Shown piece after piece: positions 3,888 through 4,148 of a stretch of DNA of 4,497 nucleotides (position 1 is the first letter of the stretch; each line of letters starts with the position of its first letter). A program made the position numbers and the translations under genes. The notes beneath the pieces are model-generated. The model ran no database searches, was not told where the DNA came from, and saw only the letters and a list, made by a program, of their open reading frames with translations. The DNA lies in IMG/VR virus record IMGVR_UViG_2648501230_000017; one strand, 5' to 3'. This stretch comes from a virus. Lineage: Duplodnaviria; Heunggongvirae; Uroviricota; Caudoviricetes.

Positions 3888-4111
3888 CCGGGTATCAGTT
3901 AGCGGGAGAAATTTTTAAATACTTCACAATTCAGGCGGTTGACTGTTGTCTGGTTTGCGGGGAGTTTGTTAAAAGAAACTGGCATGGTGAATCCCCCTGT
4001 GCGGAGGGGCAATCAGCGAGTAGGTATATGGGATAATCGCGGATTCAGGTGCTGGTACTGAATTCACCGGGAGGCACCCGGCACCATGCAATGGCACATA
4101 GCGCCACTCTC

Positions 4112-4148
4112 CAGCCCCTCTCCGGAGGGGCTGTTTATATTGATTTTG
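4112..4148 (+). terminator. rho-independent terminator closing the cargo module
   Basis: 9-bp GC-rich stem (4112-4120 CAGCCCCTC pairing 4125-4133 GAGGGGCTG) with loop TCCG, followed by the T-rich tract TTTATATTGATTTTG. The opposite strand lacks a U-tract, so it is + strand specific. Confidence 0.6.

Follow-up and report, generated by a model that had tools for sequence, protein, structure and literature searches.

An STnc100 small RNA gene in the late-regulatory region of a lambdoid prophage

The stretch of DNA analysed here (4,497 nt, the window) carries on its plus strand what is almost certainly the gene for the prophage small RNA (sRNA) STnc100, in the same variant as EcOnc05 of the Sakai Sp4 prophage. 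Since the variant is that of EcOnc05, the RNA is already known: it is curated in Rfam and has been detected by experiment, and its recognition here is a rediscovery. The explanation that we favour, with a probability of roughly 0.65, is an STnc100 gene with its own promoter, the transcript of which would fold into a compact core and act in trans through its tail.

Identity and genomic setting

A scan against all Rfam families, the check suggested in an earlier note on this DNA, returned a full-length match to STnc100 (RF02076, model positions 1–206 of 206) at window positions 3953–4142 on the plus strand, with 132.4 bits and E = 4.9e-30; the curated gathering score of the family is 47. The window and the Sakai Sp4 prophage of E. 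coli O157 are identical between about 3917 and 4132 and diverge just past the terminator stem. The probe with which Tree et al. (2014) detected EcOnc05 on northern blots is perfectly complementary to 4011–4045, the EcOnc06 probe matches 4025–4059 with one mismatch, and the STnc_100 qPCR primers of PMC12370729 match the window exactly. The probe for EcOnc08 had no match in the window within three mismatches.

EcOnc05 was found in five of five Hfq-CRAC (crosslinking) data sets, with an Hfq peak that maps onto 4014–4122 of the window, and the northern sizes of EcOnc05 and EcOnc06 were ~222 and ~177 nt, respectively (Tree et al. 2014). As the Sakai copy is identical over 3917–4132, the copy in the window would likewise be expressed as a discrete Hfq-bound sRNA. 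All 11 prophage-borne STnc100 copies of EDL933 are transcribed, and one of them, STnc100_4, was verified by northern blotting (PMC5331693). One copy of the family, 75 nt past stx2B (PMC12370729), overlaps the Hfq-binding EcOnc27/sRNA103 (PMC12711010, PMC7873438). The earlier note, made from the letters alone, had proposed a structured regulatory sRNA with an intrinsic terminator in a prophage late region, and the full-length family match and the Hfq-bound, northern-verified relative confirm this proposal. The interval that it marked, 3985–4148, holds a real unit, for which 3982 to about 4141 are better limits, with a promoter from about 3946.

As a whole, the window represents the late-regulatory region of a lambdoid prophage and has the following features, in gene order.

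First in gene order: DUF968-like fragment
413–778: RusA-like ORF
775–1329: Q antiterminator-like ORF (Pfam DUF1133 at 6.4e-103, and Phage_antitermQ)
1908–2957: DNA methylase
3007–3082: tRNA(CAT)
3090–3163, plus strand: decayed tRNA (22.2 bits against a cut-off of 29; no ARAGORN call)
3180–3256: tRNA-Arg(TCT)
3367–3720, plus strand: 117-aa ORF without a Pfam match
3756–3887: DUF3927 ORF, on the same strand as the STnc100 element
3953–4142, plus strand: full-length STnc100 match, its first ~29 model positions over putative promoter DNA
4168–4170 (stop), minus strand: IraM-like ORF, convergent on the STnc100 element

ARAGORN and the Rfam tRNA model found the upstream tRNAs only; the flagged element is neither a tRNA nor tRNA-like. 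Resemblances to tRNA-like, HDV-like and twister-like folds were rejected, as the topology differs and no model matched. The first of the tRNAs (anticodon CAT) is a tRNA-Met according to ARAGORN but is recorded elsewhere as tRNA-Ile (ileZ), and Sakai prophages carry tRNA-Arg(TCG), argN, where the window has the decayed tRNA. The 117-aa ORF is a hypothetical protein in phage mEp460, adjoins the tciB annotation in phage JLK-2012 and is unannotated in the RefSeq genome with identical sequence.

In that genome (locus L001), holin, lysozyme and Rz genes lie downstream of the element, which sits on the late-operon strand, preceded by Q and the tRNA cluster and followed by the lysis genes. The arrangement recurs in many genera: Q precedes the STnc100 core, holin, lysozyme and Rz follow it, and all share its strand. 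The STnc100 RNAs, including EcOnc05, EcOnc06 and EcOnc27, share with the window element both the fold and this position between Q/tRNA and lysis genes. The window lacks the convergent short anti-sRNA of the AsxR/AgvB type that the Sakai copies have; instead, the IraM-like gene converges on the element. In Sakai Sp4 (locus L184, 2939–3057), the minus-strand EcOnc08/EcOnc21 converge on EcOnc05, and the window has no counterpart. AsxR and AgvB (RF02703, RF02702) occupy the same moron-insertion region and in Sakai form convergent pairs with STnc100-type RNAs. Unlike the window element, they are 51–60 nt long, lie on the opposite strand and have a conserved 42-nt 3′ region. Neither family matched the window at E values up to 1 in a search that does find AsxR in Sakai Sp5. 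A perfect 12-bp inverted repeat at 4164–4197 (TCCTTATGGACT / AGTCCATAAGGA, 10-nt loop) overlaps the 3′ end of the minus-strand IraM-like ORF and may be the terminator of that gene or a stabilising hairpin.

Lambda 6S RNA, StxS and IsrK are short, constitutive, terminated leader RNAs made between pR′ and tR′. The window probably has such a leader at 1363–1436, in the position of StxS/IsrK. Here, directly after the Q-like ORF, there is a weak plus-strand match to isrK (21.6 bits against a cut-off of 50); TTGATT (1327–1332) and TTCAAT (1350–1355), 17 nt apart, would place the start of this unit at about 1362, and a terminator at about 1409–1436 closes it. STnc100, 2.5 kb downstream of this unit and with a predicted promoter of its own, is a separate element. 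IpeX of the K-12 prophage DLP12 was considered as a family member and dropped, there being no STnc100 match in the DLP12 region.

A 211-base query (3940–4150) matched 2860 of 5426 complete E. coli genomes, in up to 12 places per genome, and also sequenced phages. Searching a single genome of each species for an exact pattern yielded 58 homologous loci from about 45 species of Enterobacterales, and a looser pattern applied to viral contigs yielded at least 120 loci. Our own covariance model gave 89 matches in the genome loci, including copies missed by the patterns. Four Superficieibacter/Leclercia loci contained multiple STnc100 cores: two (L008 and L048) had five to six model hits each within a few kb, one (L009) had three tandem copies ~250 bp apart, and the fourth (L047) had five Rfam hits and one isrI hit.

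The folded core

We read the first ~108 nt of the element as a core that is closed by a helix P1 and holds the helices P2 to P5 and a kissing interaction. The parts of the promoter, core and tail, all on the plus strand, are as follows.

3946–3951: probable −35 hexamer TTGTCT, read from the sequence, 18 nt upstream of the −10
3967–3975: extended −10, TGtTAAAAG, at a position-specific A/T signal; predicted start G3982
3982–3989: P1 5′ strand, GCAUGGUG, pairing with 4082–4089 (Rfam and minimum-energy fold)
3994–4009: P2 hairpin CCCCU-GUGCGG-AGGGG, 3994–3998 with 4005–4009 (Rfam and minimum-energy fold)
4009–4011: P3 5′ strand, GCA, forming a short helix with CGC at 4038–4040
4012–4018: kissing-loop 5′ strand AUCAGCG, just after P2/P3, pairing with 4050–4056
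4019–4037: variable insertion inside P3
4038–4040: P3 3′ strand, CGC, pairing with 4009–4011 (covariation)
4041–4065: P4 hairpin GGAUUCAG-GUGCUGGUA-CUGAAUUC, 4041–4048 with 4058–4065 (Rfam and minimum-energy fold)
4050–4056: kissing partner UGCUGGU in the P4 loop, pairing with 4012–4018
4067–4081: P5 hairpin CCGGG-AGGCA-CCCGG, 4067–4071 with 4077–4081 (Rfam and minimum-energy fold)
4082–4089: P1 3′ strand, CACCAUGC (Rfam, minimum-energy fold and covariation)
4090–4111: tail between core and terminator, a candidate seed region
4112–4148: intrinsic terminator, a 9-bp stem (4112–4133) followed by UUUAUAUUGAUUUUG (terminator scan and Rfam alignment)

The minimum-energy fold of 3982–4148 has −69.5 kcal/mol (z = −3.17; one of 200 shuffles was as good) and is that of the Rfam consensus: the closing helix, CCCCU/AGGGG, a variable hairpin, CCGGG/CCCGG and the 3′ terminator. 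The hairpins CCCCT/AGGGG (3994–4009) and CCGGG/CCCGG (4067–4081) and the terminator hairpin (4112–4133) of the earlier note were thus present both in the sequence and in this fold, the last also in the terminator scan. Two further pairings that it listed did not hold up. The AATC/GATT hairpin (4035–4045) is complementary but absent from both the minimum-energy fold and the Rfam consensus; among 62 homologues it showed no covariation, and the two alignment helices that represent it paired in 41.5–45.5% of cells. GGTGAAT and ATTCACC (3986–3992 with 4062–4068) are complementary too, but the pairing lies outside both structures; the same 62 homologues had no change on both sides, and pairing was lost wherever the P4 strand varied.

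Compensatory changes in the homologues, more than 130 distinct copies taken from viral contigs and about 45 enterobacterial species, support P1, P3, P4 and the kissing loop. In 83 distinct sequences, 92.6% of cells of the nested fold paired, compared with 79.7% in shuffles, and 21 of the 27 pairs had changes on both sides. Controls in which the partner was slid by one to three columns paired in at most 47% of cells. All eight pairs of P4 had both-side changes, and the outer three pairs of P1 had them in 12–18 sequences each. P3 is GCG/CGC in 66 of 137 copies, GCA/UGC in 33, GUC/GAC in 4, GCU/AGC in 3 and GCC/GGC in 1, a level of pairing reached by none of 5000 permutations; in the window its third pair is an A·C mismatch. 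G4009 can be assigned to P2 or P3, since the invariant sequence fits both. The alignment of the 83 sequences was fitted to a covariance model and leans towards structure; an independent MAFFT alignment gave the same pattern for P1, P3 and outer P4, with the inner P4 columns out of register. Our measure of covariation, by cell counts and permutations, only approximates event-based statistics.

P2 and P5 are almost invariant in sequence, while the neighbouring helices covary freely. The P2 stem did not vary in 136 of 137 parsed copies, though the search pattern freed one position, and its few compensatory changes occur in diverged copies. P5, including the loop AGGCA, was the same in 132 of 137 copies, of which the search had fixed only GGGAGGC. 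A second pseudoknot, between GCG of the P2 loop and CGC before P4, looked compensatory in L054 and in L044/L058; it was rejected in favour of P3, as at least five GUC/GAC sequences covary with the nested P3 and would break the loop pairing. GGUG at 3986–3989 can pair with either of the two invariant CACC motifs that flank P5, at 4065–4068 or at 4082–4085. The distal pairing alone extends with covarying pairs; the proximal one, that of the earlier note, could form only if P5 and the end of P4 were opened. A switch between two GGUG/CACC states is conceivable.

The kissing pairing stays complementary despite sequence change, with combinations such as ACUGGAU/AUCCAGU, UUUGAUC/GAUCAAA and AAGCCA/UGGCUU among the homologues, in which the kissing strand has 60 distinct sequences. 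We measured it without an alignment, as the mean longest helix over 88–96 distinct combinations. With its own P4 loop, the strand formed a mean longest helix of 6.2–6.3 bp, and with permuted loops one of 4.46 ± 0.11 bp; none of 2000 permutations reached the observed mean. Same-length windows of its own insertion region gave 3.6 bp. A count in fixed columns of the model-fitted alignment (A2) gave 32% pairing in the nominal register and 68% at +2; the strands are out of register there because the fitted model cannot represent the kissing pairing. We found no mention of an STnc100 kissing loop in the searchable literature.

The compensatory changes also bear on a protein origin of the interval, as a gene remnant or a translated small ORF, to which we give next to no credence. 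In several genomes, RefSeq annotates a partial "hypothetical protein" pseudogene opposite the element, on the minus strand, and ribosome footprints occur on some EDL933 copies of STnc100 (PMC5331693). Against this stand, besides the base-pair changes, the coding properties of the interval. From about 3890 to 4165, as the earlier note had stated, no frame on either strand has an ORF of 60 aa or more (the longest are 37–50 aa), and no overlapping ORF has a Pfam match. The P2–P5 stretch, which holds the insertion, is 57–82 nt long in 108 distinct copies, and the lengths spread evenly over the residues modulo 3 (30/43/35). In the conserved AUG/GUG frame, variation in the P2 region falls on first and second codon positions, with the third invariant. 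The interval carries no protein-coding signal and is almost certainly not a decayed protein gene, and its pairing is conserved among homologues.

Promoter, terminator and exchangeable tails

We read the element as an independent gene with its own predicted promoter, which begins at about 3946, and with a start near G3982, as the spacing of the −35 and −10 elements (3946–3951 and 3967–3975) would place it. Counted from the T of TGGTG, an A/T-rich −10 signal occupies −14 to −8 across 114 distinct sequences from upstream of the core, and a T-rich or TTGAC-like signal lies at about −36. The −10 thus keeps a fixed distance from the first helix in many genera, whatever gene lies upstream. A Klebsiella locus (L006) has TTGAAA, 17 nt and TAAATT at the position equivalent to the promoter of the window, and in Sakai Sp4 a terminator, not an ORF, directly precedes the STnc100 element. 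RNA-seq places the 5′ end of the related RNA PasD1 at the initial G of GCAUGGUG, with which P1 begins (Pearl Mizrahi et al. 2021; Zhu, Shabalina and Storz 2026); its 3′ end is where the U-tract stops. Because of the upstream signals, the Sp4 terminator and the PasD1 5′ end, we take the first 29 positions of the Rfam model to be promoter DNA. We predict an RNA of ~160 nt (150–160 nt), from 3982 to about 4141.

These observations disfavour the suggestion of the earlier note that the RNA might be derived from a 3′UTR or have a processed 3′ end. More broadly, processing of the RNA as a 3′ fragment from a longer transcript (the DUF3927 mRNA, 3756–3887, or a Q-dependent late transcript) is improbable. 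Such a fragment would fit the common strand of the element, the upstream ORFs and the late operon, the weak −35 element, a shared prophage block that begins ~60 nt upstream of P1, and an EcOnc05 northern band (~222 nt) that exceeds the predicted 150–160 nt. It does not fit a −10 that is kept at fixed distance in front of any upstream gene, the abundance of EcOnc05 behind the Sp4 terminator, or the start of PasD1 at the first base of P1. From the ~222-nt band, a 5′ end could lie near 3920, where the shared block begins, and there could be a second, longer RNA species with that 5′ end.

The terminator hairpin is CAGCCCCTC-TCCG-GAGGGGCTG, and the U-tract behind it has an interruption (UUUAUAUU) that makes it a poor 3′-end binding site for Hfq. 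A terminator-like hairpin was found in 81 of 119 distinct homologue tails, where the stem ends a median of 54 nt after P5; about a third of the distinct tails have no recognisable terminator. Tails vary among copies with the same core. Strain AR_0374 and a Shigella copy have an unrelated tail immediately after CACCAUGCA, and in phage mEp460 the match to the window goes no further than 4090. Promoter and core behave as one exchangeable block. The limits of similarity are sharp, starting at about 3917–3925 (Sakai Sp4, vB_EcoS phages) and stopping at 4090 (mEp460, AR_0374). EcOnc27, from downstream of stx2, differs from the window element in the insertion inside P3, in the sequence of P4 and in the tail; its Hfq peak covers P5, tail and terminator.

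At five loci (L007, L011, L036, L041 and L050) a core without a terminator is followed after ~100 nt by a 233-aa ORF of the same orientation and appears to serve as a 5′ leader. By eye, the 233-aa ORF resembles a KdgM-type outer-membrane porin. Such loci, the tails that lack a terminator and the riboswitch-like layout of a P1-closed fold followed by a terminator would suit an element that acts in cis, riboswitch-like or by stabilising an mRNA, on the genes downstream. As a general account of the element this is very improbable, since terminators are unrelated between copies and have no conserved alternative pairing to the core. At the window locus it is excluded because the next gene, the minus-strand IraM-like ORF with its stop at 4168, is convergent; some relatives may be used as cis leaders. 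A riboswitch-type antiterminator was considered as well, because the 3′ strand of P2 resembles the 3′ strand of the terminator here; it was dropped, as the terminators of other species are unrelated.

Tail, core and function

The most likely function of the STnc100 RNA is, on balance, that of an Hfq-associated trans-acting RNA that would pair through its tail, by analogy with its relatives. Transcription would begin from the extended −10 promoter (3967–3975) at about G3982 and stop at the hairpin 4112–4133 to give an RNA of ~160 nt. The first 108 nt would fold into the compact core, in which P1, formed from the first nucleotide on, encloses the hairpins P2–P5 and the P4 loop forms the kissing pairing with the strand that follows P2/P3. 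A copy-specific single-stranded tail and the terminator would make up the other 50 nt. Action in trans would proceed by pairing through the tail (4090–4111), perhaps via CUCUCC at 4107–4112, a possible anti-Shine–Dalgarno seed; the core would either shield the 5′ end as a conserved scaffold or bind some partner. The analysis itself established the family membership, the fold with its covariation, the position of the promoter, the exchange of tails and the genomic context.

The nearest comparison is with PasD1 and PasD2 of EPEC E2348/69, described by Pearl Mizrahi et al. (2021) and in a preprint by Zhu, Shabalina and Storz (2026). Like the window element, these RNAs have a DUF3927 gene immediately upstream, Q further upstream and lysis genes downstream, and they retain P1, P2 and P4 as well as the kissing pair, here AAUGAUC with GAUCAUU. 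Both the seed of PasD and the positions of its RIL-seq chimeras fall into the tail that separates P1 from the terminator. That the window RNA is expressed, crosslinks to Hfq and pairs through a seed in its tail would follow by extension from such published work on the same sequence or close relatives. PasD lacks P5, which is intact at 4067–4081 in the window, and has a longer tail with the seed UGUGAG, a motif not seen on reading the window tail (4090–4111). Its Rfam score, moreover, does not reach the cut-off, and our own core model gives it 33 bits, compared with 99 for the window. Because PasD lacks P5, has another tail and stays below the cut-off, the window element is STnc100 proper and not PasD. 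In an hfq mutant PasD was not reduced (log2 fold changes of +0.55 and −0.18), and the Hfq dependence of the family is therefore not clear-cut.

This last result, together with the near-invariance of P2 and P5, which exceeds the needs of a scaffold and thus suggests that the core may have a function of its own, leads to another account. The core could be the functional module itself, binding a protein, the transcription machinery or a small molecule, with the Hfq-bound tail secondary. This account is compatible with the one we favour, and we regard it as possible but rather unlikely. It would explain why P2 and P5, loops included, hardly vary across ~45 species and viral contigs when neighbouring helices covary, and it suits a closed multi-helix junction with a kissing loop, a core that is kept while tails are exchanged, several core copies per locus in some genera, and PasD that is abundant and not reduced without Hfq. 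It is countered by PasD RNAs that lack P5 and yet are expressed and active in RIL-seq, by the recurrence of Q and the lysis genes only, with no consistently adjacent partner gene for the core, and by the Rfam search, in which no other family resembled the core at E values up to 1. We would equally tentatively propose, from the comparison of homologues, that a 108-nt core with its own function extends from Escherichia to Erwinia-like genera, with interchangeable tails or downstream genes attached to it.

Thus, a real sRNA gene was picked from sequence alone, one that is already in Rfam and characterised as EcOnc05, and of which one copy lies directly after the Shiga toxin 2 genes. The pattern of conservation suggests that selection acts mainly on the pseudoknotted core with its two invariant hairpins, and not on the tail that is treated as the seed. 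The residual interest of the family lies in this conserved core.
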